A stretch of 64,000 bases of DNA from Candidatus Buchananbacteria bacterium (GCA_013359225.1 JABWCG010000003.1:48783-112782); one strand, 5' to 3'. Shown: positions 6,446-63,905, numbered from the stretch's first letter. Notes: generated from the letters alone by a model not told the origin. Numbers and translations are program-made.

Positions 6446-7210
6446 ATGAGCTTAAAAACGACTGCCATTATTGCTGCTAAAAAAGCTGGCAAGGAATTGC
6501 TAAAACTTTCTGATGAAAAAATAAAATACCGGCTGAAAAAGAAACATGATATTTTAGCCGAAGCTGATTTAAAATCAGAAAAAATTATTATTAATGAAAT
6601 CCGAAAGCATTACCCGGCCCACAGCATTCTTTCCGAAGAGATGGGTCAAGATTTGAATACTTCAAACTACCTCTGGGTGATTGACCCAGTTGATGGAACG
6701 ATTAATTTTTCCCGGCAGCTTAATGACTACTGCATTTCCATTGCCGTTGCTAAAAAAAATGAGCTGATCCTAGGGTTAATTTATAACCCAGTGACACAAG
6801 AAATGTTTATCGCTGAAAAAAATAAAGGCGCTTTCTTAAATGGCAAAAAATTAAAAGTCTCAAACGAAAACAAAACAATCAACATGCTATTGGCAACTGA
6901 CAATTCTTCCAACCCGCAAATTAGAAAAAATAATTATCGCATCCTGCAAAAAGTCTGTACTGATTTTCGACATATCAGAATTTTTGGTAGTGGCGCGCTC
7001 CATCTAGCCAAAGTCGCCTCTGGCAAAATTGACGCTTACTATAAAACAAAATTTAATTATTGGGATTATGCAGCCGGAGTTTTACTGGTTCAAGAAGCAG
7101 GTGGCAAAGCAACCGATTTAAATGGTAATAATATTACTACCAAATCAAAAAGCATTATCGCCTCCAACGGCAAAATCCATCAACAAATTATTAGGATATT
7201 AAAAAAATAA
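6446..7210 (+). CDS. Inositol monophosphatase family protein (SuhB/IMPase-like)
   Basis: 254 aa. Motifs EEMG, WVIDPVDGTINF and a C-terminal WDYAAG. Confidence 0.85.
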   Translation: MSLKTTAIIAAKKAGKELLKLSDEKIKYRLKKKHDILAEADLKSEKIIINEIRKHYPAHSILSEEMGQDLNTSNYLWVIDPVDGTINFSRQLNDYCISIAVAKKNELILGLIYNPVTQEMFIAEKNKGAFLNGKKLKVSNENKTINMLLATDNSSNPQIRKNNYRILQKVCTDFRHIRIFGSGALHLAKVASGKIDAYYKTKFNYWDYAAGVLLVQEAGGKATDLNGNNITTKSKSIIASNGKIHQQIIRILKK

Positions 7211-7857: not shown

Positions 7858-8580
7858 TTAATCAACCTCAATCACTTTCCTCCAGGTCGAATCTGCCTCG
7901 ACCCTTTTTTCAAATTGTCTAGCATACCGTTCATGGTAGCAAATGTGATATGCCACAATCGTAGTCAGTATCCGCCAAATGGTAAACAGGCGGGTAATGA
8001 CACGGCCAAAGACCGCATAAAACCCAACCACCGTCACGATTGCCAAGCCCCAGCCAAACACGCTGCCAAGCCAATGGCTTGAACCAAGTATGTTTGGCAA
8101 AAGTACTGCTGTGACAAACTGAGCGGCGATAAAGTACGCCACTAACACCAGCAACGCCCCCAGACCAAGAAAGCCAAAGTGCAAGAGCAGCTTTTCTACT
8201 CTCGGAATCCAACCCATGCGCTTTTCAAGCTGCCAATGGCCACCTTCGTGCGCCAACACTCGTGTTACTTCATCGTCAAAGTGTTGTTTGGCCTCTTCGT
8301 AGGTTGGCGGCCGATGCTTATCCTGCGAAAACAGGAAAATCTCAAGCACGTCAATCGTGATGCTCATTGTCTGAGCATTGAACTGTCCCAGAGTACCGTC
8401 AACCGGTCCCATGGTAAACTCGACTTCAGGCTCATGCTCCGGCGCTACGATGTTATGTTCCGCGTTCACTCGGCGAATCAGTTCGCAAAAAAGCGATTTG
8501 TCAAACCGAAATCGGGGAACAAACATCGACGAAATCATCAGCCGAAACAAGCGCTGCAAATCCTTAACCGACGGGGTCAT
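7858..8580 (-). CDS. HExxH zinc metallopeptidase-like protein with three C-terminal TM helices; last gene of the GC-rich island
   Basis: 240 aa. LAHEGGHW carries the zincin HExxH motif. It is followed by hydrophobic helices (LGLGALLVLVAYFIAAQFVTAVLL; WGLAIVTVVGFYAVF; ILTTIVAYHICY). GC-rich. Confidence 0.55.
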   Translation of the reverse strand: MTPSVKDLQRLFRLMISSMFVPRFRFDKSLFCELIRRVNAEHNIVAPEHEPEVEFTMGPVDGTLGQFNAQTMSITIDVLEIFLFSQDKHRPPTYEEAKQHFDDEVTRVLAHEGGHWQLEKRMGWIPRVEKLLLHFGFLGLGALLVLVAYFIAAQFVTAVLLPNILGSSHWLGSVFGWGLAIVTVVGFYAVFGRVITRLFTIWRILTTIVAYHICYHERYARQFEKRVEADSTWRKVIEVD

Positions 8581-8618
8581 TCGCTACTCCTTTTTCGGTA
8601 GTTACCTAAATCGCCGTC

Positions 8619-9542
8619 TCAATAAGACACAAGCGATTCATCCAAGATTTCATGATATCGCCACGAAACAGCGCGCAGGTCAGGACGTTGTTGTCCTAAA
8701 ACAACAGTATGGAGTTTTGCTCCTAGCTTGGCGAGCGATGACACCACCCATTCAACATCAAAACCCTCAGTACCGTCCGTCACCAAAAGGATTTTAATGT
8801 CATCAAGCCCAAGCTCTTTCAGCAGTTCGAAGCAAGCACGAAATGCTAGATCAATATGTGTCCCACCGTTGTGGTAAACAATTGATCCAAGCGCTCGTTG
8901 CAGTTCTTCCAGCTTCGCCCGGCCGCTTGCCTGATGTGGACAATCAGCCTGATCGGAAAAGGTAATCAGCGCATAATCAGCGTCGTGATCAATACACTTA
9001 CCAACCAAGCGCTCGCTTAAGCGCCGCGCCCAGCGACTTCGGTTATACTCTTTCATGCTGCCGGAGCAATCCAGCACCTCAATCACTGCCTTGCCGGCTG
9101 GTTCTTCAACCACGGTTTCTGCCAGATGCTCCACCACGCTTAATTGCCCGGTGGCTGCCTTGGCAAAAAAAGTCTCATCTTCTAGAGCATGTTCGCTTCG
9201 AAGAATGCGGGGGATTTCACTAAATCCCATCATCGGCCGAACATTGATATCATCAGCCGGAATTTCCGACGGCTGCAACTCCACATGAGTTTTGCCACCG
9301 TGAGAAAATTCAATCTCCGACACGATACGCTCAATCAACTTGTTAGGATCCTGCGGCCTCACTGCTTCACGCGATTCGGCAGCCTGCTTGTCGGCGCCAT
9401 TGCCTGGCTCATCACCCGACTCAGCAGGCGGCTGCGGACCCTGATCGTCCGACCGAAATGATTGCCGTAAATGCTTCATCAGCTGCCAGGCGATATACGC
9501 CGCGCCAGCCAACAATCCTCCACCAATCACAAAAGGTAGCAT
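8619..9542 (-). CDS. von Willebrand factor A (vWA) domain protein with N-terminal TM anchor, ViaA-like
   Basis: 307 aa. N-terminal helix MLPFVIGGGLLAGAAYIAWQL, then an acidic linker. MIDAS motif D-x-S-x-S (VLDCSGSM), plus T (ITFSD) and D (LVTDGTEG). Strong SD sequence (aagggaggtga) before the ATG. Confidence 0.75.
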   Translation of the reverse strand: MLPFVIGGGLLAGAAYIAWQLMKHLRQSFRSDDQGPQPPAESGDEPGNGADKQAAESREAVRPQDPNKLIERIVSEIEFSHGGKTHVELQPSEIPADDINVRPMMGFSEIPRILRSEHALEDETFFAKAATGQLSVVEHLAETVVEEPAGKAVIEVLDCSGSMKEYNRSRWARRLSERLVGKCIDHDADYALITFSDQADCPHQASGRAKLEELQRALGSIVYHNGGTHIDLAFRACFELLKELGLDDIKILLVTDGTEGFDVEWVVSSLAKLGAKLHTVVLGQQRPDLRAVSWRYHEILDESLVSY

Positions 9543-9659
9543 CGGGCTTCACCTCCCTTGGTTTTTATAGCTCAAAAGCTTTCACCCTAATTGACAAAGA
9601 TCCTTTGAACATTCAATCAACAGGATTGACTGCTCAAACATCTTAATCAAAAAATAGGC

Positions 9660-9693
9660 GATGAGTGGTTTGATATTGTCCAAACCACTCATC
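9660..9693 (-). terminator. Strong hairpin with T-run (minus-strand orientation) between the ATPase and vWA genes; terminator or attenuator
   Basis: gatgagtggtttg-atattgtc-caaaccactcatc: 13-bp perfect stem. On the minus strand it is followed by gcctattttttga. Confidence 0.5.
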
Positions 9694-9717
9694 GAACACG
9701 AATCCTTCCTCTCGTAC

Positions 9718-10959
9718 TTAGCTGTGCAACCCGGCCTCAGCCAATGCCCGCTGGCGTAACTGCTCAATCATCTCTGAAACCTTCGTCGCTGCACGCTCCT
9801 TGAATTCGGCGACGTCGTCATTCTCCGGAACAACGTCACCCAGTGACTGCTGCAGCACTTTCAGATCACCAACGGCGAGTTTGACATCGCCGTGCAGGTC
9901 AACCCGATCGGCTTGCTCCATAATGGAGTTGATCGCTACCTTTTGAGCATGATCAAGTTGTTGCATTTTTTCGGCGTGGATTTCCTCTATTTTGCCTTCA
10001 GCAATCTCACGCCACAGATCGTGCTCTTCCGGCGTGGAGCCAAGCGCATCAGCAACGTTGAGTAAATCGCTTGGTTCAACGTACAGCCGACCGTCAAGCA
10101 CTGCCGACACTTCCAGCATCTGTGAAGCAATCGCGATTCGCCGGTCGGACACTTCCGGCAAAATCACCTTCCAGTCGTTAGACTTGATCGCTTCGCGACG
10201 ACGCTCGCGATATTCTCGCGCCGCCTGGGCATACTTGATCATAATCAATTCGTCACGAATAAGCGTTGGCGGCGCCACCACTAGCTCGGACAGATTGTGA
10301 ATCAGGTCCAGAGGGATTCGGTCTTTGACATCAACCCCCTGGCAATTCTGAAAACTACGAACCATCCGAAAAAGTTCGTCATCGGTCTCCAGATACTTAA
10401 CCTCGGTGATGAAGAGCAGTCGGTCCAACACGGCCCAGGCGTATGAATTCTTCTTGAGAAATTCGCCCGGGTGCTTGTTGGTGTCGCAAAAGACCGTCAC
10501 CAATGGCATATCAACAATCTGCGTACCGCGGCGTAACCGTCGCTCGTTTAGCGACGACAACAGCGACCGCAAGAGCGGCATGCTGCCGTCCAAAAACTCA
10601 CCCAGACGCGCCAAATCCGCCTCGGGCAACATCCCTTCGGTGCGGTGTTCAAGGATTCCGTCTTCCTTCATTTTGCGGATGTCATACGGACCAAAAACGG
10701 CATCGTCACCCATGAACATCGCTAGCTCAATGTGGAACTTTTCCGCGTCATAAATGCCTTCGTAGACCCGATCGCACACGGCCGTTTTAGCCGTACCCGG
10801 ATCGCCGAATACCAACAAGTGCTGACGTTGCACCATCGCCCAACGTAACAGGCGCAACAAGCCTTCACGGTGGATGAACCCACCGTTAAACTGCTCAAAG
10901 TACCGGTTGTACTGTGCCGCAGCAATCTTCAATTCATCAGGGGTCAAGCGTTTTCCCAT
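9718..10959 (-). CDS. AAA+ ATPase of the MoxR/RavA family (RavA-like)
   Basis: 413 aa. Walker A LLVFGDPGTAKT. The RavA-like block EFLDGSMPLLRSLLSSLNERRLRRG resembles E. coli RavA ([23 protein letters not shown]), but the Walker B reads DG, not DE. Long helical C-terminal region. Confidence 0.8.
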   Translation of the reverse strand: MGKRLTPDELKIAAAQYNRYFEQFNGGFIHREGLLRLLRWAMVQRQHLLVFGDPGTAKTAVCDRVYEGIYDAEKFHIELAMFMGDDAVFGPYDIRKMKEDGILEHRTEGMLPEADLARLGEFLDGSMPLLRSLLSSLNERRLRRGTQIVDMPLVTVFCDTNKHPGEFLKKNSYAWAVLDRLLFITEVKYLETDDELFRMVRSFQNCQGVDVKDRIPLDLIHNLSELVVAPPTLIRDELIMIKYAQAAREYRERRREAIKSNDWKVILPEVSDRRIAIASQMLEVSAVLDGRLYVEPSDLLNVADALGSTPEEHDLWREIAEGKIEEIHAEKMQQLDHAQKVAINSIMEQADRVDLHGDVKLAVGDLKVLQQSLGDVVPENDDVAEFKERAATKVSEMIEQLRQRALAEAGLHS

Positions 10960-10973
10960 CGGTACGTTTCTCC

Positions 10974-11699
10974 TTACCGGTTATAGATCAGATACGCCAA
11001 CCAAGCGATGCCGGTGGCAATGAATATCAGCGCTCCCAAAATGCACATGACGAAACGTCTCGTCCATGCTTCAAGTTTGGGATCAGTGTGGCCCTTCATT
11101 AGGTAGCCGGTCAAAGCGTCAATTAAGCGCCGACCAAGCCAGATGATTAGCCGTAGGGCGCAAAATATCAACACCCCAACGACAAAAAAACAAACCAACA
11201 TCAGGATCATTGCTACCGGGTATGAAAACCGCGGTGTTACATATGATCCAGACAGCACTTTGATTCTAGTAGTACCATCCGGCGCTTTCACCACCGAATA
11301 TACCAATGGCTCACGCCACTCAATCAGGGGATAGGAGACAATAAACCGGATCGGCGCTCCCCGAACCAACGGCTCTGGTAGCCTGACCGAAACACTTGTT
11401 TGCCACCACCACGGCCCCACCGCCCAGTTGTCGTCAACCAAGCCGACAAGTTTGTGACGGTAAACCATATGGTTGAAATACACCTCTTCCCAGTCAACAT
11501 AGTGAGCCGCGACTGCCGCGGGGTATTCCAAACTACGGTATGGACCAACATATGACTGGTCAAAAACCTGCCGGATCAAATGCAATTCCTGCACCTGATC
11601 GCTGTCGCTTACGCTCGAAACCAAGACCTTGCCAGTCTGGTCTTGCGCACTGGCAATGCCAAAGACTGCCAAACAAAAAATCATCGCTAAGTGCTTCAT
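10974..11699 (-). CDS. Exported protein with signal peptide and two C-terminal TM helices; first gene of the GC-rich island
   Basis: 241 aa. Signal peptide MKHLAMIFCLAVFGIASA, then a roughly 150 aa Trp-rich ectodomain (GPWWWQ), then two hydrophobic helices. No family recognised. Confidence 0.4.
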   Translation of the reverse strand: MKHLAMIFCLAVFGIASAQDQTGKVLVSSVSDSDQVQELHLIRQVFDQSYVGPYRSLEYPAAVAAHYVDWEEVYFNHMVYRHKLVGLVDDNWAVGPWWWQTSVSVRLPEPLVRGAPIRFIVSYPLIEWREPLVYSVVKAPDGTTRIKVLSGSYVTPRFSYPVAMILMLVCFFVVGVLIFCALRLIIWLGRRLIDALTGYLMKGHTDPKLEAWTRRFVMCILGALIFIATGIAWLAYLIYNR

Positions 11700-11836
11700 C
11701 GTAGACTCTCCCTCATGTTTGAGTTTGGATTCGTATAGTCAACAAACCTCGTTGCTTTTAGACGCGTCAAAAACACGTTAAAAGACCTTATAATATATAA
11801 AAAAAATAGCATTTTGTCAAGGTGACACTATCTCAT

Positions 11837-11886
11837 TTGACACTATCTTATACATCAGGTAATATATCCCCATAGGGGGGATATAT
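11837..11886 (+). promoter_or_regulatory. Copper operon promoter (TTGACA, 17 nt spacer, TAATAT) overlapping a CsoR-type operator palindrome atatatcccc-ata-ggggggatatat
   Basis: -35 at 11837-11842 and -10 at 11860-11865. The inverted repeat at 11862-11886 is an AT-flanked C4/G4 palindrome like known CsoR operators. A direct repeat tgacactatct occurs twice upstream (11823-11849). Confidence 0.5.
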
Positions 11887-11889
11887 ACT

Positions 11890-12198
11890 ATGAACAAAAA
11901 TTCCATCCAATCAACAGCCGCCAAACTCTTACTCACTATTATGGTGTCATTCATCATTAGTGCTTTCTTTTTAGCAGCACTAACAATAACGCCCGTCACT
12001 TATTCAGGGCACGACCAGTGCTTTAATAGTCAATGCGGACCGATTCAACACTTATTCCACGATTTCGTTATGTTGCCAGCGTTACTTACTAAAAACCTAA
12101 TGCTAATTATCATTTGCTTTATCATTTTATTCACCCCAATAGCAGTGGCGACAACACCAAAAAGCCCACCGCCAAGATTTACTTTAATAAACAACTAA
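11890..12198 (+). CDS. Small 2-TM membrane protein with a Cys/His-rich loop (HDQCFNSQCGPIQHLFHDF); first gene of the copper operon
   Basis: 102 aa, immediately downstream of the CsoR operator. Putative metal-binding loop between two helices. Confidence 0.4.
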   Translation: MNKNSIQSTAAKLLLTIMVSFIISAFFLAALTITPVTYSGHDQCFNSQCGPIQHLFHDFVMLPALLTKNLMLIIICFIILFTPIAVATTPKSPPPRFTLINN

Positions 12199-12203
12199 AC
12201 AAT

Positions 12204-12476
12204 ATGGATAAACGACATAAAACAACAACCAAAGATCGCGCTTTGCATCGAGTCCGAATTATTCAAGGCCATCTGACATCAATTGAAAAAATGCTAGAAG
12301 AAAATCGCTACTGTGTTGACATTGTTCATCAATCACGAGCGATTCAAAAAGCCCTAAAACAACTTGATATCCTTATTATTGAAAACCATCTCAAGGGTTG
12401 CGTCATTAATCAGATCAAAGGCGGTCAAGAACAAAAAACCACCAGTGAATTACTCAGACTCTTTGAGTACAAATAA
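12204..12476 (+). CDS. csoR: CsoR/RcnR-family copper-sensing transcriptional repressor
   Basis: Start chosen at MDKRHK; the ORF track's 12114 start overlaps the previous gene. The block RVRIIQGHLTSIEKMLEENRYCVDIVHQSRAIQKALKQLDILIIENHLKGCV carries the Cys...His...Cys ligand pattern of CsoR (DUF156). Confidence 0.8.
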   Translation: MDKRHKTTTKDRALHRVRIIQGHLTSIEKMLEENRYCVDIVHQSRAIQKALKQLDILIIENHLKGCVINQIKGGQEQKTTSELLRLFEYK

Positions 12477-12489
12477 ATAACTACAATCT

Positions 12490-13932
12490 ATGTCCCAACA
12501 TCATACTGAAGAAAACTTCAAACAGCACACATTTTACGTTGCCGGCATGCACTGTGCCAGCTGTGAAGTTTTAATTGAAAAAAAACTCCTCAAACAACCG
12601 GGCGTGGTATTCGCCAACGCCTCGTTAAAAGATGCTCAGGTTATCGTCAAAACTAATCCGGACACCCGCCTTAATCTAGCCGACCTCAACCGTGACATTG
12701 AACCGCTAGGCTACCAGCTTAAAACTTCACCGGTTGCCAAAGAAGTAACCAGCCTGTTTTATAAAAATAATTCAGGCAGCCTAACGTTAAACAAAAAAAG
12801 GTTTCACCAGCTCCTTAAAAGCGTGCTACTGGCATTATCATTTTTGGCAGTCTTTTTTGTTATTGAGCGTTTCCAGTTTGGCCGATTTGTTTCTGTCGAT
12901 GCCACATCAACCTACTCTGCCTTCTTCCTGCTCGGCTTGGTCGCCGGCGTCTCCAGCTGTGCGGCACTGATCGGGGGACTGCTTTTGTCCCTTATCAAAC
13001 ACTGGAACGAGGTCTACATTGACGCCGAAAAAACATCGCAAAAAGCAACACCACACCTATTGTTTCACACCGGCCGAATGGCGTCGTTCTTTGTGCTTGG
13101 AGGCGTATTAGGAATAATCGGCGACGCCATCACTTGGAATAACACCACCACCTATGCGCTGCTGACTATTGCCGTTTCGTTACTGATGATTATCTTGGCG
13201 TTTCAAATGCTTGGCGCTTCTTGGGCAACCAAACTAGCGCCGCGATTACCAAAATTTATCACGCGCGTTGCCACCAATGAACAATCGTTTCAGGGAAAAT
13301 TCATGCCGTTTGTCACTGGTGCGCTGACATTCTTTCTGCCGTGTGGTTTTACCCTCATCGCGCAGGGAGTGGCGCTCGCCACTGGCAGTTTTATGTCCGG
13401 AGCATTAATAATGACATTTTTTGCCTTTGGTACTCTGCCAATGCTAACAGCAATCAGTCTTACCGGGCTTACCTTCACCAGCCGACCCCATCTAACCGCC
13501 AAGTTCTCATACGTAGCCGGGGTTATTATTATCTTTTTTGCGCTCTACAACATCAACGGTCAATTTAACGTTCTGGGGCTACCGAGCTTAAGCGACATAA
13601 CTGTTTTGTCGAGTAAAAATGCCACCAACGATATGGCTGGTACGCCATACGCTGGCAGTGAAGAACAAATTATCTCGCTTGTTGCCAAAGGCTTTAGCTA
13701 CACACCAACCAGCCCGACATCACTCAAGGCAGGCATACCAACTAAACTCGTAGTGGATAATCAAGGAATTCAAGGCTGTGGCACCTACATGGCCTCCCGC
13801 GGGCTGATCAATGGTTTTGTCGCTCTAGAAAAAGGCGAAAATATTATTGACGTTGGTTCGCCAAAGCCCGGAACATACAAAATTACCTGCTCAATGGGCA
13901 TGGTGCCGCCGGTAACAATCACTATTAAATAA
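12490..13932 (+). CDS. HMA-domain membrane protein: N-terminal GMHCASC copper-binding domain, CcdA/DsbD-like polytopic core, C-terminal cupredoxin-like domain
   Basis: 480 aa. FYVAGMHCASCEVLIEKKL is the HMA domain. The TM core has Cys motifs (GVSSCAALIGG, FFLPCGFT). The C-terminal soluble domain ends with a Cys/Met-containing beta-strand, TYKITCSMGMVPPVTITIK. Confidence 0.6.
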   Translation: MSQHHTEENFKQHTFYVAGMHCASCEVLIEKKLLKQPGVVFANASLKDAQVIVKTNPDTRLNLADLNRDIEPLGYQLKTSPVAKEVTSLFYKNNSGSLTLNKKRFHQLLKSVLLALSFLAVFFVIERFQFGRFVSVDATSTYSAFFLLGLVAGVSSCAALIGGLLLSLIKHWNEVYIDAEKTSQKATPHLLFHTGRMASFFVLGGVLGIIGDAITWNNTTTYALLTIAVSLLMIILAFQMLGASWATKLAPRLPKFITRVATNEQSFQGKFMPFVTGALTFFLPCGFTLIAQGVALATGSFMSGALIMTFFAFGTLPMLTAISLTGLTFTSRPHLTAKFSYVAGVIIIFFALYNINGQFNVLGLPSLSDITVLSSKNATNDMAGTPYAGSEEQIISLVAKGFSYTPTSPTSLKAGIPTKLVVDNQGIQGCGTYMASRGLINGFVALEKGENIIDVGSPKPGTYKITCSMGMVPPVTITIK

Positions 13933-13936
13933 TCAC

Positions 13937-14158
13937 ATGGATAAAAAACTACTCATTAAAGGGATGCATTGTGACGCCTGCCTTAATTTGATCAAAATGG
14001 AGCTGGCTGATGCCGGATTAGAAAACAACATTAAAGAAATAAAATTACTCGACGGCCAGCAGCGAGGTTTTGTAACGCTGACTAATCCTTCTGAAGCAAA
14101 AATTATTCAGGCAATCACAGCTATCAATGCACTTGGACCATACCAGGTTGAAATTTAA
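13937..14158 (+). CDS. copZ: Copper chaperone CopZ (single HMA domain)
   Basis: 73 aa with GMHCDAC. Confidence 0.85.
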   Translation: MDKKLLIKGMHCDACLNLIKMELADAGLENNIKEIKLLDGQQRGFVTLTNPSEAKIIQAITAINALGPYQVEI

Positions 14159-14168
14159 CTGATCTAAT

Positions 14169-16553
14169 ATGATAACTAAAAAAATATTTCCGATTGTCGG
14201 AATGCATTGCGCTTCCTGCAAAATACTAATCGAAAAAATGGTCAAAAAATTAGATGGCGTCTCTGACGTTCAGGTTAACTATGCCACCGAAAAAATGACC
14301 GTAACCTACGACGAAAAAAAAATCGGCTCAGCCGACCTTTCGTCCGCCGTCAGCAAAGCCGGAAGCTATAGGCTAATTACCAATCAAGCCGGTGAAACTG
14401 TTTTAGCGTCACCGCCAGAAGCCAAAAAAATCACTCGTCACCATCACCAAGCATCGTCTACGGCCGGACACCACGATCACGCCTCAGCGCTAAAGAAAGA
14501 AGCCTACCTTAAACTTAAGAAAAAAGTCATCATGGTTGGCATTGGTTCAGTGCCATTCTTCTTAATGATGATTAATACTGTTTTGGCGTCGTTTGGCTTA
14601 ATGATGGTCGGCGAACAATTCGGGTTCATTAAAATTGAAGCATTAAACTATAGGCTTAACCTATTTTTCTTGCTGCAATTTTTGATCGCCACGCCTATTA
14701 TTTTCATCGGCGGCCAGCAATTCTTCCAAAGCGCTTGGCAGGCCTTAAAAGCCAAAGCGGCTAATATGGATACCTTAATTGCGCTTGGTACCTTCACGGC
14801 CTGGCTCTTCTCAACGTTGGTTACGTTTACGCCTCAATTTTTTGGATCGCTTAAAACTGACGTCTTTTTTGAAGCGGCGGTTTTTATTACCTTCTTTATT
14901 CTGATTGGACGACTCCTTGAAGCCAGGGCCAAAGGTCAAGCTAACGACGCTATTAAAAAACTGTTTGCCCTTCAGGCTAAAGAAGCAACTGTCATACGTC
15001 ACAATCAGGAAATTAAAATCTCCATTGATCAAGTAGTTACTGGCGACATTATCATCGTAAAGCCCGGAGAAAAAATTCCGGTTGATGGCACCATCGTTAA
15101 CGGTGCCAGCACGATTGATGAATCAATGGTCACTGGCGAATCGTTACCGGTTGAAAAAACGGTCGGCGACCAAGTCATTGGTTCAACCATCAACAAAACC
15201 GGAGCTTTTACTTTTGAGGCAAAAAAAGTCGGGTCCGAAACCCTGCTGGCGCAAATCATTAAAATGGTTGAAGAAGCTCAGGGCACGACCGCGCCAATTC
15301 AAAAGTTAGCCGACGCCATTTCAGGTATCTTTGTGCCAATTGTAGTTGTGATTGCCGTTATTGCCTTTTTATTTTGGCTATTTATTGCCCCGACGATTGG
15401 CTTAATTGGCACTGATGTGTCAGTGCTGCAGTTAGCTGTCTACATTGCAACAACCATATTGATTATTGCCTGCCCATGTGCGCTGGGGCTTGCGACCCCA
15501 ACTGCCGTTATGGTTGGCACCGGTCAAGCAGCGAGGCGCGGCATCTTAATCAAGGATGCCGCCGCTCTTGAGGGGGCTCAACAAATCAAAACCATTGTAT
15601 TTGATAAAACTGGAACTCTAACTAAAGGCATTCCCGAGGTAACTGATTTTGTCTTAACCGGCACCATTGATGAAAAAACCGTCCTGTCGTATGCCTATGC
15701 CCTGGAAAAAAATTCTGAACACCCTTTGTCTGACGCCATTACCAAATTTGCAACAAAATTCAAAAACAATGATACGGCCACAGCTTTTAAAGCCATTGAA
15801 GGTCGAGGTGTTGAAGGCGTTGTTAACAACCAAAACATAACGATTGGCAACCAACGACTGCTAAACGAAAAACATATTACCATTGATCAAACAACCCTCA
15901 ACCGGGTTGAGCAACTCAGCCGTCAAGGTAAATCAATCGCTTATATGGTAATTGCTGATTCATTAGTTGCCTTTTTCGGCCTCGCTGACGTTATTAAAGA
16001 TGAATCCGTTCAAGCCATCAAAAATCTCCAGGCCATGGGCATTACAGTTATTATGTTAAGCGGCGACAATCAAAAAACCGCTGACGCTATTGCCCAAAAA
16101 CTCGGCATCAACCAAGTTATTGCCGAGGTAATGCCTCAAGACAAAGCACAAATTATCAAGGAGCTGCAAAGTAAGTTAACCAACAAAGGGTACGTTGCCA
16201 TGGTGGGGGACGGCATTAACGATGCACCAGCCCTGGCTCAGGCTAATATCGGCATTGCTATGGGGACCGGCACCGACGTGGCAATTGAAACTGGTGATAT
16301 TGTTCTGGTTAAGGGTACGCTCGACAAAGTGGTAGAGGCAATAAAAATGTCACGCTCGACACTAAAGATCATCAAACAAAACCTATTTTGGGCGTTTGGG
16401 TATAATATTGTGGCCATCCCAGTAGCCGCCGGCATACTCTATCCATTTCTTGGAATTTTACTTTCGCCAATCATTGCCAGTGCCGCCATGGCATTTAGTT
16501 CAATTTCCGTCGTACTAAACAGTATCCGTTTAAAGGCAATTAAACTTAAATAG
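14169..16553 (+). CDS. copA: Copper-translocating P1B-type ATPase
   Basis: 794 aa. N-terminal HMA (GMHCASC), His-rich linker, CPC motif ([10 protein letters not shown]), DKTGTLT, and GDGINDAP. Confidence 0.95.
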
Positions 16554-17901: not shown

Positions 17902-18804
17902 TCACTGCAAAGGACCGACCACGGCGTCGGTTGAGCCGTGCAAACGGATATTCTCCTCGCGTGAAAGCCAAAATCCTCCCAAATAACGATACTTCATCGC
18001 CGTAACGTCAAAAGCAAAAAAGGCGCGTAACACCATCAGCCAGTCTTTGCCATTGCACAAAAACGGACACCTCATCGGTTCAATGAAATTCTGGCAATAC
18101 ATCAGGCCTTGGCGGTTCAACGTTTCGTGAATCTGGCTGCGGCTGGATGAACCGCGGTAGCGGCCCTTGCGCCAAATCATCACATCGCGACACGACATGC
18201 CTTGTCTCGGTTTGAGGACAAATCCCTGTTTCCATGGCAGTTGATCCGCTGTTTGCACCGGCGACCACAGCCCGACAGCCTGACCCCAGCAACGCAGATT
18301 ACGATTGGCGCATGGCGTAATCGAACGCGATGCAAACGTTGCAAGTGCCTGACTATTTTGAGCTGAACGGACCAACAGTAAATCCTGGCAAGAACCAAGT
18401 TCCAACAAACTCAATGGCTGGCCAAGCCAAACATGATCGTCTGACGCTTTGTCCAAAACCAACGACCGAACTCGCGGCCATGATGCCAAAACATCCTGTA
18501 GCTTAGTTGCGAAATCCTGGTTAACTCGGCAAGCCACGCCCAAACCGTCAGGTGCATCATCAACGCCAAAAATACTTACCCGACGAGTACTCTCGTCAAC
18601 ATGACCCAAATCAACCTTCACCAGCATACTGTGCGTGTTAAAAGCCTGGCTAACAAAAGTTTCTTCGGGCGTAAAATGGCGTTCCCATTTCGTTACCCAA
18701 TCATGACAGGCTGAAACTGCCCACGCGGGCAATTCAAAAATGCGCGGCAAGCTGGCAACCTGCCAACTTCCAATTGCAAGACACTGACAATCCAGATTAG
18801 ACAC
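17902..18804 (-). CDS. Hypothetical protein in a GC-rich singleton; weak resemblance to an ATP-grasp fold (GFVLKPRQGMSCRDVMIW)
   Basis: 300 aa, about 55% GC by eye against AT-rich flanks. It has its own flanking hairpins. No family confidently recognised. Confidence 0.35.
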   Translation of the reverse strand: MSNLDCQCLAIGSWQVASLPRIFELPAWAVSACHDWVTKWERHFTPEETFVSQAFNTHSMLVKVDLGHVDESTRRVSIFGVDDAPDGLGVACRVNQDFATKLQDVLASWPRVRSLVLDKASDDHVWLGQPLSLLELGSCQDLLLVRSAQNSQALATFASRSITPCANRNLRCWGQAVGLWSPVQTADQLPWKQGFVLKPRQGMSCRDVMIWRKGRYRGSSSRSQIHETLNRQGLMYCQNFIEPMRCPFLCNGKDWLMVLRAFFAFDVTAMKYRYLGGFWLSREENIRLHGSTDAVVGPLQ

Positions 18805-23915: not shown

Positions 23916-24938
23916 TTAAGGAACAAGTCGCTCCAACTCGGCTGCCAGCAAACCGACCGACCGACCAAGTTCAGTCGGAATCAAAAACATGGCTTCTTGC
24001 TTCTGGCGAAGCCCGCTGTTGCCGCTGAATACGCTAAGCAGCGCTCGTTGCAGTTCTTCGTCATTGCGGCCAGACATAACATAGCCTTGTTCAATCGGCT
24101 CCCACATCTCTTGCCCGGTGATGACTTTCAGCCGTCCCAGCGCCAAACCGCTCGCGTAGGTCACGACTGGTTTGCGCAGAAAACCAGCCTGAATGCCGAT
24201 CGTGGAAAATGAGTCTACGATAACATCAGCGGCGGGAACGATGTCAGTTCCGGCCATAGTTTCTGGTAACACCAGTTGAATCTTGCCGCCCGACCAGGCC
24301 ACCAGCGGCTCGTACAACGCCACCGGATTTCGGTCGCCGGGGTGGAAGCTGTACACGATCTGGCAGTGCCAGTTGTGACGATGCACCAAATTGAGCACCG
24401 CTGAAACAAGCGCGATGTTAATCAGTAACTCTTTGGTGCCAACCACCAAAAGGACCCTGCCGTCATTAAGACCAAGCTGAGACCGGATTTCGGTCGCCGT
24501 AAATTTCGGAAACGCGAAACGCTCCCAAACCGGATTACCAGTCACTACAACGTTGACGCCAGGCAAGTGCTGTCTGGCTTTGGCCGCTTCATCCTCGTTC
24601 AGAACAAAAAAAACATCTGCTTGTCGCAGTTGGTCCTGCAGCCAGGTCCGGCGATGGCTGTTAAAGATGTCGGCGAAAAACCCAAACTTCTTGCCGGTTG
24701 CTTTCGCCAGATCAAAAGCGGTCAACTCCGGCGCGGCCAACTCTGGGGAAGACGACATCCCGCACAGCGTGATATCGCTACCTTCGACGGCTCCCTGCAA
24801 ATCGTTCAGGCTAGCAATCTGTTTACCGTAGCCCAAAAAGGTGTGTGTCTGCCAACCAACGGAACCTAAGTATTCCGCCAGTAGGCCAAGCGCTTCGGAG
24901 CCACCCATGTCGCGGGCGACCAGTGTGATACTTTTCAA
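23916..24938 (-). CDS. GT-B fold glycosyltransferase-like protein (MurG/GT28-like features) in a GC-rich singleton
   Basis: 340 aa. Two Rossmann-like halves. VVVTGNPVWERF resembles the MurG-family TGNPVR block. C-terminal TDIVPAADVIVDSFSTIGIQAGFLRKPVV resembles the GT-B donor-binding region. Family assignment is tentative. Confidence 0.35.
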   Translation of the reverse strand: MKSITLVARDMGGSEALGLLAEYLGSVGWQTHTFLGYGKQIASLNDLQGAVEGSDITLCGMSSSPELAAPELTAFDLAKATGKKFGFFADIFNSHRRTWLQDQLRQADVFFVLNEDEAAKARQHLPGVNVVVTGNPVWERFAFPKFTATEIRSQLGLNDGRVLLVVGTKELLINIALVSAVLNLVHRHNWHCQIVYSFHPGDRNPVALYEPLVAWSGGKIQLVLPETMAGTDIVPAADVIVDSFSTIGIQAGFLRKPVVTYASGLALGRLKVITGQEMWEPIEQGYVMSGRNDEELQRALLSVFSGNSGLRQKQEAMFLIPTELGRSVGLLAAELERLVP

Positions 24939-59291: not shown

Positions 59292-61190
59292 TCAGGCCGA
59301 AATCGTCTTGCGACGAAGAACAAACGTGCCGAAACTGACCAGAACCACGACCAGCAGTAACAGCCCCAGGGCCGAAGTAGCCGGCACGGAAGCCATATCG
59401 CCGCCGTCCAACGGATCCGAGCCGAAGGTGTTCTCCTGACCGTCATTCATGCCGTCGTTATCGGTATCAGAGTCGTTGGCATCCAGGTCGGTGCCGGTAG
59501 GGTTGGAGTCCGGGTTGTACGGATTGTACGCCCCGTCGCCGTCATACCAGACTTCCTGGTGATCGTTTAGCCCATCGTCGTCTGAGTCAGCATCGTTGGG
59601 GTTGGTTCCCAGTGTCGCTTCTTCGGCGTCCGACAAACCGTCGTTGTCAGCGTCAGGCTCAATAACTGAGCCGGGAGGCGCCACAACGAATTCCGAGAAG
59701 TGCACCACCTGCACCGTCAACATGTTGTTGGCGAGGTCTCGCGAGATAACCGTCGCTTCCTCGGTAGTGCCGTCGGCGTTGACGGTAATTACCGACAGAG
59801 TGCTCTCGTCGAGGCCTTCGATTTCGGCGTCGGTGTACTTTACTACCAGCGTTCCGGGCGGGTCAAAGACGAGCCCGTCTTCGCCAAGATCGCGCCGGAT
59901 CAAGTTACCGGTCGGCGGCTGCTGGATTTCTTCAACTGGCGTGATTGGCGTTGTCATCGTGATCGTCGCCGTGCCTGCCTTTGGCATCAATGCCACTTCG
60001 GAGGTTTTCCCAGCAGCTTTTGCCGGAGACTTCTTTGCCGCCGACGAAATCTGCGTTCCCGTATCAAGCGTTAAGCTGGTACCGGCGCCGTCGGTGAGGT
60101 ACAGCGGATCAATCAACTGCCCACCTTCGGTCAGCGCCAAAACAGCCTCAATCGCCAACGTGGAAATATTCAGACCATTATGGTCGGTCTGGGTGTCGAT
60201 GTAGGCGAGACGCGTCCCGCCTTCCGAAGCCGACACCAGCGCCTGGTTGCCCGCAAGGGTCATCCCAACAGGCGTCCACGTGGTAGGGCTGCCGTCAAGA
60301 AGCTCGCTGGTTTTGACCAGTATCACCTCAAAATCCGACAGCGGAATCGTTCCGGCCGGGTCCAAATCCGAGTAGGCGCCGTTGATGTCTTCGGAATAAA
60401 AGATCAACGTGCCGTCCTGAGAAAACTGCGGACTCGTGACGTAGAATGCGCCGTTGGTAAACGGGATCACCTTGCCGCTAAAGCTGGTGATCGGCAGCGT
60501 TGCGCTGTTGAGGTCTTTGACCAGATATAGCCGGCGGGTGGTGTTAGTCAACGGCCACTCCACCAGCAGGTTGTCGCCGTCCGGAGACAGCACGGGGTTG
60601 ATGAACAACGCGAAGTTGCCCAACAACTTTTGAGCGGTCGCGATGATCGGCGTGCCATCGGCTTCAATCTGAATGCGGTACACGCCTTCGTTCACGATCT
60701 CGGGGACCGAAAAGTCCACCGTGACAAAACTCATCCAGTAGGTGCCGTTTGAGCCGATGGTGACACTGGGATTACGCACCCCAATGTCCGCGTCCGACAG
60801 ACCAAGGTCGGATGCTTTCAAGATGTGTTGCGTCACAGTGCCGTCGGCAACCGCGACTTTCGAGATGGTTGGCCGGGTGCCGGCCGAAGAAGTAAACAAC
60901 ACGTATTCGTCGTTCGGGCTCCACGCGAGTGGCGACCAAACGATGGAGTGTGTGCTGTCCATCAACTGCGCAGCCGTGGCAACGTTGGTCGGGTCAATGG
61001 TCCACACCGTGTTCGTATTGCCCATGTAGGCAAGCTTGTCCGCGGCATGGTTCCAGTGGGGGTAAAACGCTCCGCCAGTCGGTCGGTGCAGAAACGTTTC
61101 GTTCCCCATGTCGTAGGTGATGAAGTTTGTTGCGTTCGCAACAAAACTTCCGACCATCATAATGATGGCCATCAATACAGTCTTTTTCAT
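59292..61190 (-). CDS. Large GC-rich exported protein: TolB-like beta-propeller repeats, thrombospondin-type-3-like Asp-rich Ca-binding repeats, C-terminal hydrophobic helix with basic tail (sorting-signal-like)
   Basis: 632 aa. Signal peptide. Repeated SPDG/SQDGT propeller motifs. DADNDGLSDAEE, DSDDDGLNDHQE and DSDTDNDGMNDGQE are TSP3/DxDxDG repeats. The C-terminus is ...SVPATSALGLLLLVVVLVSFGTFVLRRKTISA. Confidence 0.6.
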   Translation of the reverse strand: MKKTVLMAIIMMVGSFVANATNFITYDMGNETFLHRPTGGAFYPHWNHAADKLAYMGNTNTVWTIDPTNVATAAQLMDSTHSIVWSPLAWSPNDEYVLFTSSAGTRPTISKVAVADGTVTQHILKASDLGLSDADIGVRNPSVTIGSNGTYWMSFVTVDFSVPEIVNEGVYRIQIEADGTPIIATAQKLLGNFALFINPVLSPDGDNLLVEWPLTNTTRRLYLVKDLNSATLPITSFSGKVIPFTNGAFYVTSPQFSQDGTLIFYSEDINGAYSDLDPAGTIPLSDFEVILVKTSELLDGSPTTWTPVGMTLAGNQALVSASEGGTRLAYIDTQTDHNGLNISTLAIEAVLALTEGGQLIDPLYLTDGAGTSLTLDTGTQISSAAKKSPAKAAGKTSEVALMPKAGTATITMTTPITPVEEIQQPPTGNLIRRDLGEDGLVFDPPGTLVVKYTDAEIEGLDESTLSVITVNADGTTEEATVISRDLANNMLTVQVVHFSEFVVAPPGSVIEPDADNDGLSDAEEATLGTNPNDADSDDDGLNDHQEVWYDGDGAYNPYNPDSNPTGTDLDANDSDTDNDGMNDGQENTFGSDPLDGGDMASVPATSALGLLLLVVVLVSFGTFVLRRKTISA

Positions 61191-61519
61191 CCCTGGACTC
61201 CTTGGTTACGGTTGTGGTTGGTTCGTCTACGCTACGTGCTCCTGCCAATTGTCAATGTGCTTGTCTTCCCTCCCTGTTTTTGTCTTGATAGCCAAAAAAT
61301 ACAATAACGACAAAAGCATTTGTACTCTACTACAAAATCAGTAAATTGTAAAGGGTAGTATAACAAAATTTTGACTAAAAATAAACAAAAAATCCATTTT
61401 TTAAAAAATTTTTAATTTACAAATTGGGCTCGGCGTGTTAATTAATAAAAGGCAAAAGCCTGCAATGTTCATTACAACCAAACCTCAGTATATAGCCACC
61501 CACCGAGGAGAAGCCCGCA

Positions 61520-62479
61520 ATGAAGCTTCGTCAGATTCGATTTGGACCGGTCCTCGGAGCTTCCGGGGTCCACAACTTCTTTGGGGAAGGCTACCCCTAC
61601 CACCGCTGGCTCAAGCTGGCGCTACCACTACATTTTCGGTTTGATGGCATGACGTTTGTCGCCAAAACGACAACCTTGCACAAAACCGAAGGCAATATGC
61701 CGATGCGTGATGACGGCGTCACACCGCAAGAGTTTCATCCGCGCTGCATTGTCGTCAAGCCGTACCACGGCGTAGCGCTTAACGCGGTTGGTTTGTCCGG
61801 ACCCGGTGCGGCTGATTTGTTTGAGCGGGGATTGTGGCAAGCACGGACCGAACCGTTCATGCTGTCATTTATGTCGACCAAGCCGACACCCGATGAACGG
61901 ATTGTCGAAGCAATTGATTTCTTCAAGCTGCTTGAAGAGTATCTCGATTACTTCAACGCGCCAATCGCGCTCCAAGCCAACTTCTCGTGTCCTAATGTCA
62001 AACTCGACCCGAACAAATTGATTGCTGAAGCGGCTAGCGTCTTGGACGAAGCCCGCCGAATCAAAGTGCTACTTGTTCCAAAGTTCAACGCGCTGATCCC
62101 CGTCGCGGCGGCGAAAAAAATCGCGGATCATCCAAACTGCGCGGGGCTATGTGTGTCTAACACGATTCCCTGGAAAGATTTGCCAGCAAGCTGGCAAATC
62201 AAATACTTCGGCGACGTTGTTTCGCCGCTGGTAGAATTTGGCGGCGGGGGATTATCCGGCGCGCCACTACTGCCGTTGGTTGTTGACTGGGTGCGTCAAG
62301 CGCGCACAGTCGGCATCACCAAACCAATTAACGCTGGCGGCGGCATTCTGCACCCAAACAACATTTGGGAACTGAAAGCGGCCGGCGCTGATTCCGTTTT
62401 TCTTGGATCAGTTACCATGCTTCGCCCGTGGCGAATGGCACAACTGATTCAAACCGCATACCAAGCCTTTGGCCGATAA
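61520..62479 (+). CDS. Dihydroorotate dehydrogenase family protein (class 1-like TIM barrel), GC-rich
   Basis: 319 aa. NFSCPN (active-site Cys context), GGGLSGAPLLPL, PINAGGGI. SD sequence gaggag upstream. About 55-60% GC. Confidence 0.6.
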   Translation: MKLRQIRFGPVLGASGVHNFFGEGYPYHRWLKLALPLHFRFDGMTFVAKTTTLHKTEGNMPMRDDGVTPQEFHPRCIVVKPYHGVALNAVGLSGPGAADLFERGLWQARTEPFMLSFMSTKPTPDERIVEAIDFFKLLEEYLDYFNAPIALQANFSCPNVKLDPNKLIAEAASVLDEARRIKVLLVPKFNALIPVAAAKKIADHPNCAGLCVSNTIPWKDLPASWQIKYFGDVVSPLVEFGGGGLSGAPLLPLVVDWVRQARTVGITKPINAGGGILHPNNIWELKAAGADSVFLGSVTMLRPWRMAQLIQTAYQAFGR

Positions 62480-63905
62480 ACCTGGAGAACCCTTCATCGT
62501 GAAACCCATTCGACTCAAAACGAAACATTTACACCTGGACTCCGGCGAAATTATCCCAGCGGTAGTGGTTTGTACACCAAATCAACCGCTGGAAATTCTC
62601 GCATACGAATCCGCGTGTGACCTTGATATGGGTGAGTACCACCACATTGCGCTGGCACGCTGTGATCCGCACGTTCATGCGCGACAAAACATTGTGCCGT
62701 CGCGCGAAGAGTTCGAGGCACTCAAAATCCACGAGGGTGAATTTGATGACGTCATCCCAAAAATTCACGCCGCAAATCTTCACTACGACGTGTATCGCGC
62801 TTCATTAGCCGCGCTCAAAGGCGGGGTCTGGCTGATTGGCTGCATGGGAAACACTCCCTGGGGACCAATCGGAGTCCAGCGCTGGCAACAAACGTTGGAC
62901 TTGTACCGGCGCCACGCCCTGGTTTACACTCACGTCTGGCCGCGCCTGGAGCCTGGTGTTCCGGCAATCGACGGACAAGAGGGTAAAGACTTCGGATCCA
63001 CTTTTGGCGGAGCTGGGCTGAGCGCCGATGAACGTGATGCGATGTTCGCACTGTGGGCGGGACAAGACGTTTCGTTTCATAACGACATGCCACGACCCGA
63101 CCAAACCATTGATGAGTTCTTTCGCCACGCTACAGCAGCGCTGGAAGCAAAGTTTCACCTATACTACAACGGTGAAACAGTGCTACAAAGCCAGCGTGAA
63201 ACCATCGCGTTGGCGCGCAAACACCACCTGCGTTCACTGCGGACGCGACACGTCCCGACCGGACCGGCGCTGGAAATGTTGTTAGCCGAACGCAAAGTTG
63301 GCGGACTCAAACTGCCCATTGAAGTTGGCCTTGATTACCTATATTGGAGCTGGCCAATGGTCGTTGGACATCGCACCGGCAAAATCAATTACCGCCGGCC
63401 GGCCTTTCCGTCGGAGCAAGATCAGCTACGACTGATTGCCGTGTTACGCGAAGTTGCTTTTGACCCGGAAATCCACCTGGGCAGTGATCACGCGCCCCAT
63501 TCGCCGGAAGCCAAACAGTACAAAAACGGGCTGCCAGGCAGTCCGGGAACCAGGCTGCTGGAACACAGCCATCAAATCCATGCTCACCTTGTCCACGAGC
63601 ACAATTTCACCTGGCATCAAATTGACCATCTGGCGGCGATTCATCCGACCAAATATCTCGAACGGTACTACGTCGGACATTTTGCCTATCCGATTGCCAC
63701 GATGGCGTCGGGCGCGATGTGTAATCTGGTCGTTTTTGATCCGGACTGTGGCTATTGCGCTGATGAACGCATTTTGCGCACGCAGCTACACGATCCGGAT
63801 TACCACAACGCACTTTGGCTGGAGCCGCTTCGGGGCAAAGTACTTTTCACTGTCGTTAATGGCCGCGTCTACGACGTTAGTGATGAAATCAAAGCCCTGA
63901 ACTAG
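62469..63905 (+). CDS. Dihydroorotase-like cyclic amidohydrolase, GC-rich
   Basis: 478 aa as tracked; the start codon appears to be TTG and overlaps the upstream stop. Metal-ligand motifs DPHVHAR (HxH) and GSDHAPH (dihydroorotase signature). Confidence 0.6.
   Translation: MADKPGEPFIVKPIRLKTKHLHLDSGEIIPAVVVCTPNQPLEILAYESACDLDMGEYHHIALARCDPHVHARQNIVPSREEFEALKIHEGEFDDVIPKIHAANLHYDVYRASLAALKGGVWLIGCMGNTPWGPIGVQRWQQTLDLYRRHALVYTHVWPRLEPGVPAIDGQEGKDFGSTFGGAGLSADERDAMFALWAGQDVSFHNDMPRPDQTIDEFFRHATAALEAKFHLYYNGETVLQSQRETIALARKHHLRSLRTRHVPTGPALEMLLAERKVGGLKLPIEVGLDYLYWSWPMVVGHRTGKINYRRPAFPSEQDQLRLIAVLREVAFDPEIHLGSDHAPHSPEAKQYKNGLPGSPGTRLLEHSHQIHAHLVHEHNFTWHQIDHLAAIHPTKYLERYYVGHFAYPIATMASGAMCNLVVFDPDCGYCADERILRTQLHDPDYHNALWLEPLRGKVLFTVVNGRVYDVSDEIKALN

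Follow-up and report, generated by a model that had tools for sequence, protein, structure and literature searches.

A block of four adjacent minus-strand genes was studied in a 64,000-nucleotide stretch (the window) of a metagenome-assembled genome (MAG) of Candidatus Buchananbacteria (GCA_013359225.1 JABWCG010000003.1:48783-112782), a tiny bacterium from groundwater in the phylum Patescibacteria, also named the Candidate Phyla Radiation (CPR). The genes encode an exported protein (Exp), a MoxR-type ATPase (MoxR), a membrane-anchored protein with a von Willebrand factor A domain (vWA protein) and a membrane protein with an HExxH motif (HExxH protein), and they recur complete, in the order Exp-MoxR-vWA-HExxH, in at least four distinct lineages. 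Our leading reading, which we hold tentatively and put a little short of an even chance, is that the block is one operon for a membrane-attached, ATP-gated protease module that would work in five steps, with its stoichiometry set at the RNA level and with lateral movement between genomes.

Conservation of the four genes

The locus search used a 12-sequence MoxR alignment and gave 6 genome and 9 metagenome loci; the loci were retrieved via the ATPase and the peptidase, and then searched iteratively with all four proteins. The quartet is complete in the window, in L003, in the L007 group (L002, L008, L009 and L014 are its contig again or copies that hardly differ from it) and in the L012/L013 group. 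Partial copies stand at contig ends: L001 and L019 hold Exp-MoxR-vWA, L010 holds vWA-HExxH, and L017 holds MoxR-vWA together with the start of the HExxH gene. A gene for a vWA protein with a transmembrane (TM) anchor comes after MoxR wherever a locus has enough sequence to show it, the HExxH gene lies 3' of vWA in L003, L007, L010, L012 and L017 as it does in the window, and homologues of Exp lie directly 5' of MoxR in L001, L003, L007, L012 and L019.

The flanks of the quartet vary with the genome (IF-2/RbfA and ClpP; PurM and GroES/EL; SmpB and IF-3; Lit and a copper operon), and the pairwise identities of all four proteins follow one lineage order. Because order and orientation are shared while the flanks differ, and divergence tracks a single lineage order, the four genes form a co-inherited unit. 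A preliminary description of the block, made from the window's sequence alone, had treated the quartet as a single system, and the gene-neighbourhood search agrees with it, since the genes stay together in at least four lineages and in different contexts. Finally, P0083, a distant member of the HExxH family (E = 1e-20), is encoded divergently beside a MoxR-like gene in L030, which is a short contig; therefore, the link between MoxR and the peptidase survives in another arrangement.

The MoxR ATPase

MoxR matches the Pfam models bpMoxR (PF20030; 121.4 bits, E = 3.4e-35, with a cut-off of 27), AAA_5 and AAA_lid_8, and its sole relatives in the PDB are chains of Escherichia coli RavA, with the similarity limited to the AAA+ domain and the lid (E = 3e-21); the alignment to RavA spans residues 10-289 only, and the protein has in addition a C-terminal helical tail. 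Against the RavA equivalog model NF010054 it reaches 81 bits, for a cut-off of 681, and no LARA or RavA_C domain was detected by Pfam. The gap between 81 and 681 bits and the missing LARA domain set MoxR apart from the RavA orthologues, so that, judged by its domains, it is RavA-like at the subfamily level and no orthologue of RavA. As for its length, the start that gives 413 residues is backed by the conservation of the N-terminal 33 residues among orthologues, the NCBI annotation having a 380-residue form.

Walker A is complete (GDPGTAKT), with G55, K58 and T59 conserved. The segment FLDGSMPLLRSLL...NER, described earlier as a RavA-like sensor block, is instead the Walker B strand with the helix after it: at the position where hhhhDE is expected, MoxR has ARLGE opposite VFLDE of RavA, with Asp replaced by Gly and Glu retained. 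GE is found in the MoxR orthologues P0001-14, 17, 22 and 24-27, that is, wherever the motif is legible, while DE is kept in the sister Patescibacterial clade and in all the more distant bpMoxR proteins; as the whole orthologue clade carries GE, the Gly is no sequencing error. E121 and D124 do not vary within the Patescibacterial clade, and the conservation of N161, D179-R180 and D272-R273-R274 extends beyond it; these last are assigned, by homology with RavA, as the putative sensor 1, arginine finger and sensor 2. The retention of all these residues indicates that MoxR is under selection as a nucleotide-binding module, and D124, three residues after E121, might compensate for the loss of the Walker B Asp.

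The vWA protein

The vWA protein begins with a TM anchor; then come a charged, variable linker and a pre-vWA region that is conserved, and the vWA domain makes up the rest, up to the C-terminus. It matches VWA_CoxE, VWA_2 and VWA in Pfam; vWA models alone match, and no β-propeller was found in it. The metal ion-dependent adhesion site (MIDAS) is full, with D158, S160, S162, T228 and D256 invariant in 15 orthologues, among which the N-terminal hydrophobic helix is universal. Lys and Arg residues number 0 before this helix and 2-7 after it, which places the vWA domain in the cytoplasm (N-out, C-in), where MoxR can reach it. Against the ViaA equivalog model NF008230, the protein scores 12.3 bits (E = 0.071), with a cut-off of 500. 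Thus, the names RavA and ViaA-like given to the pair at the outset hold at the subfamily level and fail as equivalogs (81/681 and 12.3/500 bits, no LARA).

The putative HExxH membrane peptidase

The HExxH protein opens with a zincin domain that contains HEGGH (H111, E112 and H115) and continues with a two-helix membrane hairpin, after which come the helix Y-H-E217-R-Y-A220-R and a last β-strand that rejoins the catalytic domain. The membrane helices are, therefore, the two of the hairpin and not three, as had been proposed: the C-terminal helix is amphipathic and bears the third zinc ligand.

Only 8 homologues were found in an index of 5.8 billion proteins; a profile search among 1.84 billion representatives gave a family of 64 clusters (50% identity), nearly all of 200-275 aa, fragments aside. 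H111, E112, H115, E217 and A220 are invariant in 52 members of this family, which defines a HExxH...ExxA pattern around a hydrophobic hairpin. The profile of these 52 members matches yeast Ste24p (4il3) with E = 8e-5 and human ZMPSTE24 with E = 0.004, and the alignment to Ste24p covers LAHExGHW, the membrane segment and HE..A. Taken singly, the window's protein scores 11.9 bits against Pfam M48, below the gathering threshold of 20.3, and subthreshold matches to M48 occur in 13 of the 52 members. The AlphaFold model, built on an 8-sequence alignment (predicted local distance difference test, pLDDT, 79; predicted template modelling score, pTM, 0.70), has a small α/β domain, the active-site helix, two hairpin helices of 40 residues, the E217 helix and a final strand back in the sheet. 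Hydropathy and positive-inside counts place the catalytic domain in the cytoplasm. The most fitting description of the protein is that of a minimal, M48-like gluzincin, outside the present Pfam boundary and with M48 as remote kin; it is a predicted zinc metallopeptidase, whose active site would lie on the cytoplasmic side, beside the membrane.

Regarding the end of its gene, a terminator-like hairpin of the convergent Lit gene lies at 7885-7913 (plus strand), inside the HExxH coding sequence at its 3' end; the ends of the Lit and HExxH transcription units thus overlap.

The exported protein

Exp has a Sec-type signal peptide (MKHLAMIFCLAVFGIASA/QD), then a variable linker, whose length differs by more than 100 residues among orthologues, and then an ectodomain that is conserved and rich in Trp and measures about 110 aa (WE..YF..YR..W..G.WWW...RG..F..YP). 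It ends with a TM hairpin, which holds a positively charged loop of about 30 residues with an invariant W-x-x-R-F; positive-inside counts make this loop cytoplasmic. No relatives of Exp were found in Pfam, NCBIfam, PADLOC or the PDB: a word-index search returned Exp itself only, while a six-member profile search of the PDB and the Pfam scans gave noise. As far as detected, its homologues occur only in this operon. Exp is the fastest-evolving of the four proteins, and MoxR the slowest: between L007 and L012 the identities are 57% for Exp, 75% for vWA, 79% for HExxH and 87.5% for MoxR.

In L022, a mini-Exp of 75 aa (6763-6990) stands before MoxR, and it consists only of the TM hairpin and a W-x-R-x-F loop; because just these two parts are retained there together with MoxR-vWA, the loop is the likely interacting part of Exp. 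A gene for a 302-aa protein lies divergently 5' of Exp at L007 5969-6877, L009 271-1179 and L012 594-1502 (minus strand); the copy in L007 has no Pfam match. This protein is conserved in the L007 and L012 lineages and absent from the window, and in that subclade the module may include its gene as an accessory.

The domain calls of the preliminary description hold: GDPGTAKT, DCSGS...T...D and HEGGH are all present in the four minus-strand genes that it had located (Table 1), MoxR is RavA-like, the vWA protein is anchored in the membrane and has a full MIDAS, the HExxH protein is a membrane protein of the zincin type, and Exp carries a TM hairpin at its C-terminus. Profile searches, moreover, leave the HExxH protein and Exp outside housekeeping families.

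Candidate RNA elements between MoxR and vWA

The gap between MoxR and vWA measures 175 nt in the window and 130-190 nt in the quartet clade and L022; it is 0-25 nt in the other Patescibacterial pairs, except L006, where the start of vWA is uncertain. The long gap contains two elements, found in the window, L001, L003, L007, L010, L012, L017, L019 and L022.

The first element is a hairpin resembling an intrinsic terminator, for which the scan gave 15 pairs; its 14-nt arms (9659-9672/9681-9694) are 100% complementary. A hairpin occurs at the same place in 9/9 loci with a gap of 130-190 nt and is each time long and perfect or nearly so; its sequence shows no relation from one locus to the next. 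Most of the 9 loci, L010 being an exception, have a T-run after it.

The second element, about 63 nt long, is a conserved stem-loop, in which the outer stem keeps its sequence (TTGATnAAGA / TCTTTGTCAA) and the inner stem covaries; compensatory changes occur in 10 of the 21 pairs of the element. The paired cells are 89.9%, against 39-48% with slid partners, and none of 500 shuffles reaches the observed covariation. A covariance model finds the stem-loop at this position only in the 296 kb of the window and the loci, and it scores 60 bits on the sense strand of the window against 18 on the antisense one; no match was found in Rfam. Owing to its G-U pairs and to this asymmetry between strands, the stem-loop is read as RNA, and it is a candidate cis-regulatory RNA. 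Its interpretation as a promoter or operator was rejected, as the spacing of the hexamers resembling -35 and -10 is not conserved. Hairpin and stem-loop most likely set, at the RNA level, the ratio of the Exp/MoxR half of the operon to the vWA/peptidase half.

Composition and probable mobility

The block has a guanine-plus-cytosine (GC) content of 0.510, against a mean of 0.439 (standard deviation 0.028) for stretches of block size in the window, and the flanking genes are at 0.35-0.36 on the left and 0.42-0.47 on the right. A GC content equal to or above that of the block occurs in 24 of 602 sliding windows, all of which are the block itself or the region at 57-64 kb; this region is more deviant than the block, and the tetranucleotide distance ranks the regions identically. 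Given how few windows reach this value and the agreement of the tetranucleotide ranking, the contrast is real: the block is a compositional outlier, yet one of several GC-rich patches in the window. The shift beyond normal variance claimed for it is, thus, confirmed (about 2.5 standard deviations, with the tetranucleotide comparison in agreement), as is its being richer in GC than both flanks; as a unique island it does not stand, in view of the 57-64 kb region and the genes at 17902-18627 and 23916-24908. The genome had also been called small and AT-rich, and the window, at 44% GC, is merely moderately AT-rich.

Among the other loci, the GC content of the module exceeds that of its flanks in L001, L010, L019, L022 and L024, as in the window, and matches it in L003, L006, L025 and L026. 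Genes resembling transposases lie directly 5' of the module in L001 (6102-7058; integrase-core, rve-like) and L027 (5362-5772; Y1_Tnp). Around the block of the window, the search for insertion scars gave only short repeats at chance level, with no tRNA or integrase nearby, and the 64 kb hold no paralogue of the four genes. Lateral exchange of the cassette among Patescibacteria is the simplest reading. Horizontal acquisition, as suggested in the preliminary description, is accordingly plausible from the outlier composition in several genomes and from the transposase-like gene of L001, while the copy in the window has no flanking repeats, tRNA or integrase to add to it.

As to hosts, the MAG records of L001, L003 and L004 are titled 'uncultured Gammaproteobacteria bacterium', and the other named organisms are all Patescibacteria; the three titles may be placeholder or erroneous taxonomy.

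A wider MoxR-vWA core in Patescibacteria

MoxR with a TM-anchored vWA protein is a wider Patescibacterial core, whose neighbours differ elsewhere. The distant pairs have 36-47% identity, and their neighbours are given here by adjacency alone. In L004, a gene 3' of the pair (10346-15751) encodes an 1801-aa membrane-anchored A2M-like protein with an inserted Hint/pretoxin-HINT domain, and L015 begins alike. In L005 (3845-7791), the pair is directly 3' of TerD and vWA-TerF-like genes, a stress/conflict cluster of the tellurite-resistance type. L006 has a protein resembling a type IV secretion system (T4SS) pilin near the pair, and L025 a Por_Secre_tail protein and a hydrolase. In L022, a secreted FG-GAP repeat protein (9610-10866) takes the place of the peptidase, and a Band_7 gene (stomatin/HflK-like) is directly upstream. 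Finally, a CsoR-type repressor and a copper P-type ATPase occur within 5 kb of MoxR-vWA both in L025 (1-2337) and in the window (12114-16553); the presence of copper genes in these two unrelated lineages may be a coincidence.

Relation to known systems

The block is nearest, in evolution and in its proposed working, to the multi-component MoxR-vWA systems, in which the pair has been proposed to act as a thresholding switch (Kaur, Burroughs, Iyer & Aravind 2020, eLife, PMC7159879); Patescibacteria are not mentioned in that paper. Among these systems, the β-propeller ternary ones (Pfam bpMoxR, bpX5 and bpX6) resemble it most directly: the ATPase of the block scores best on their bpMoxR model, the nearest ATPases from outside Patescibacteria (about 32% identity; L028 and L029) sit in true ternary systems with bpX5 and bpX6, and both are multi-gene MoxR-vWA modules with a variable, membrane-spanning extra component near the membrane. 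The differences are that the vWA protein of the block has an N-terminal TM anchor instead of a propeller, that its partners are an M48-like peptidase and the unrelated Exp, that the Walker B Asp is changed to Gly, and that the block has so far been seen in Patescibacteria alone; Exp and the HExxH protein gave no match to bpX, TPR or β-propeller models at E up to 1.

RavA-ViaA is likewise an operon of an ATPase and a vWA protein, with an ATPase related to that of the block, and it is reported to act at the inner membrane (PMC9489729). The vWA protein of the block is shorter and integral to the membrane, two extra genes are present and Walker B differs. As for the Bat/aerotolerance type (MoxR-DUF58-vWA), the block has no AAA_3 or DUF58 match.

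The Esr pathway of oral Actinobacteria, in which a surface sensor is proposed to relay an external threat via MoxR-vWA to an intracellular output (bioRxiv 2026, PMC13622651), shares with the block the combination of a cell-surface protein, MoxR and vWA. It differs in that its sensors are filamentous β-propeller proteins and its output is a cascade of Ser/Thr kinase, phosphatase and FHA proteins, while the output candidate of the block is a membrane metallopeptidase, with no kinase.

The peptidase was compared with M48 (Ste24/ZMPSTE24 and HtpX), with the related M56 sensor-proteases BlaR1/MecR1 and with the minigluzincins. Like HtpX and Ste24, it has an HExxH and a downstream ExxA Glu split by membrane segments; it is far smaller (240 aa, two TM helices), and its motif ends in ExxAR where Ste24p has Asp (HEYQAD). 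With respect to BlaR1/MecR1, the sensor of the block is a separate polypeptide, the coupling would go via MoxR-vWA, and no repressor substrate is encoded near the block. The FtsH ternary system was considered as a protease-bearing analogue and dropped, since that class is defined by FtsH-type AAA+ domains and not by a peptidase.

With a defining feature failing in each case, the block falls outside the RavA-ViaA, β-propeller ternary, Bat-type and PADLOC systems, and it was described correctly as matching no named system (PADLOC, equivalog models). New here are the two uncharacterised partner families, the conserved Walker B variant and the candidate cis-regulatory RNA.

Proposed mechanism and alternative explanations

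In what follows, the parts and their predicted topology come from sequence and models, and the flow of information between the parts is what we infer from them. The Exp ectodomain would report an event at the surface, such as contact with a phage or a host or damage to the envelope, a role that leans on Exp being the fastest to evolve (57% identity between L007 and L012, where MoxR has 87.5%). The signal would run via the TM hairpin of Exp to its cytoplasmic loop, and the tethered vWA domain would grip a partner peptide via its MIDAS, like other MoxR-vWA pairs. Then, the MoxR ring would remodel the complex by ATP binding or hydrolysis, thereby setting a threshold for the release or activation of the peptidase, which would cut a membrane-proximal target at the inner membrane face. 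The target could be a component of the module, in a signalling of the BlaR1 style, or other membrane proteins, in a growth-arrest or abortive response; BlaR1 may serve as a functional analogue for the coupling of a sensor to a protease. The scheme as a whole is modelled on the thresholding switch proposed for MoxR-vWA pairs (PMC7159879) and on the proposed Esr pathway (PMC13622651).

Several points weigh against this ATP-gated protease module. No peptidase target is identifiable in the operon, which has no transcription factor and no obvious toxin, and the change of the Walker B Asp to Gly raises doubt about normal ATP hydrolysis by MoxR. To our knowledge, all MoxR-vWA pairs whose function has been demonstrated serve as chaperones of maturation or assembly (CoxD/E, NorQ/D, CbbQ/O and BchI/D). 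Only about 10 distinct lineages, all of them metagenomic, make up our small sample, and the single-sequence AlphaFold model of Exp is unusable (pLDDT 52.7, with the ectodomain below 50). Moreover, the four proteins gave zero families in PADLOC-DB 2.0 at E up to 1, the flanks of the block are housekeeping genes and no defence islands, and the block has no match in viral contigs, phage records or plasmids, which leaves a phage or plasmid origin unsupported.

These last results also bear on the conflict or defence label of the preliminary description, which is not established: with no match in the defence library and with housekeeping flanks, besides the absence from viral contigs, phage records and plasmids, the term conflict system is unproven, and a conflict role for the block is plausible.

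The best placed of the rival explanations is that MoxR and vWA act as a maturation or assembly chaperone for the zinc peptidase and/or Exp, by metal loading or assembly, within ordinary envelope biogenesis; we consider it possible. The known MoxR-vWA functions, as in CoxD/E, NorQ/D, CbbQ/O and RavA-ViaA, are of this type, and RavA-ViaA is reported to act at the inner membrane (PMC9489729). The client would be a metalloenzyme, all loci have housekeeping flanks, the window holds one copy and the defence library no match, and copper-homeostasis genes are the module's neighbours in the window and lie no more than 5 kb away from it in L025. However, the cassette is rare, patchy, laterally mobile and compositionally foreign, which one would seldom expect of a maturation factor with a housekeeping role; the core has different partners from clade to clade (the A2M-like giant, the secreted FG-GAP protein and the TerD cluster), and it is the surface component that evolves fastest. 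We also know of no requirement for insertion chaperones among M48-type zinc peptidases.

A more specific version of the protease module is an envelope surveillance particular to Patescibacteria, which we find doubtful: a rapidly diversifying sensor would signal via its TM hairpin and vWA to MoxR, which, with its Walker B re-wired from Asp to Gly, would act as a threshold switch by ATP binding and not as a motor, and from there to the M48-like effector, with stoichiometry set by a dedicated RNA element between the genes. The effector protease would, for example, abort a phage infection or answer contact with a host cell. If this is true, a multi-component MoxR-vWA conflict system would for the first time be defined in ultra-small episymbiotic bacteria, and the VMAP, iSTAND, FtsH and β-propeller systems would be joined by a fifth class of architecture.

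Unlikely is a split membrane quality control of the FtsH/HtpX kind, with MoxR as the AAA+ part, the M48-like protein as the protease, and vWA and Exp as adaptors or substrate selectors under envelope stress. The affinity of the peptidase to M48 (HtpX/Ste24), its cytoplasm-facing active site beside the membrane, the location of all four proteins at the membrane or within its reach by recruitment, and the Band_7 gene directly upstream in L022 are all in line with such a role; yet the Walker B variant speaks against a high-turnover motor, and a bulk quality-control system would not be expected to have an exported partner of its own that evolves fast, or to move laterally. Substrate threading and unfolding are not known for MoxR ATPases.

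Finally, that four unrelated genes are adjacent by chance in a GC-rich patch is scarcely credible: the 175-nt gap with its terminator-like hairpin could separate two transcription units, but the same order and orientation occur in at least four lineages with different flanks, the gap hairpin and stem-loop are conserved, and a distant HExxH homologue is again beside a MoxR-like gene.

As for the meaning of the membrane-attached protease module, MoxR-vWA pairs are widespread and their function is understood in a handful of cases; the cassette is compact and wholly membrane-associated, with a candidate input (the surface protein) and a candidate output (the zinc protease), and it thus offers a four-protein test of an ATP-gated switch. 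Two uncharacterised families are defined, the minimal M48-like peptidase and the Trp-rich exported protein, and the natural Asp-to-Gly variant of Walker B bears on the use of nucleotides by MoxR rings. The cell surface of Patescibacteria is the site of their episymbiotic lifestyle and of their encounters with phages; that their tiny genomes keep and exchange the cassette suggests that it serves something important there.

Table 1. Features of the four-gene block and its surroundings, in coordinates of the window
Feature	Position	Strand	Remarks
HExxH gene	7858-8580	minus	240 aa
vWA gene	8619-9542	minus	307 aa
Conserved stem-loop, about 63 nt	9588-9654	minus	between the terminator-like hairpin and the vWA ribosome-binding site
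Intrinsic-terminator-like hairpin	9649-9694	minus	24 nt after the MoxR stop; T-run to 9649
MoxR gene	9718-10959	minus	413 aa
MoxR ARLGE codons, A117-E121	10588-10602	minus	by alignment to RavA
Exp gene	10974-11699	minus	241 aa
Sigma-70-like promoter candidate	11792-11820	minus	TTGACA-17-TATATT; 11/12 consensus matches; about 90 nt 5' of Exp

Flanks and other features of the window

The flanks are as first described, with a housekeeping membrane gene on one side and the copper operon on the other. The left one is Lit, the lipoprotein intramolecular transacylase (GC 0.35), with an inositol monophosphatase gene before it, and the right one has CsoR and the copper operon.

Upstream of the cassette, a GGGAG Shine-Dalgarno sequence is placed right before the ATG of Exp. 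Promoter matches in this region are not above those of shuffled sequences, and the promoter candidate of Table 1 is a consensus match alone. The divergent intergenic region toward the copper operon (11823-11890) contains a tandem 14-nt repeat, TGACACTATCT[C/T]AT, present twice, and a GC-cored palindrome, TATATCCCC-ATA-GGGGGGATATA, just 5' of the candidate promoter of the cassette; the palindrome resembles a CsoR operator.

Two GC-rich single genes with no Pfam match lie on the minus strand, at 17902-18627 (GC 0.52, 241 aa) and at 23916-24908 (GC 0.55, 330 aa); the product of the former equals Exp in length and has no similarity to it. The most deviant composition of the window is at 59292-63905, where GC is 0.54-0.57 and GC at third codon positions (GC3) is up to 0.72; this region codes for a protein of 632 aa carrying bacterial TSP3 and PD40 repeats, for one resembling DHO_dh and for another, of 425 aa, that matches nothing in Pfam, and it may be a second foreign island.

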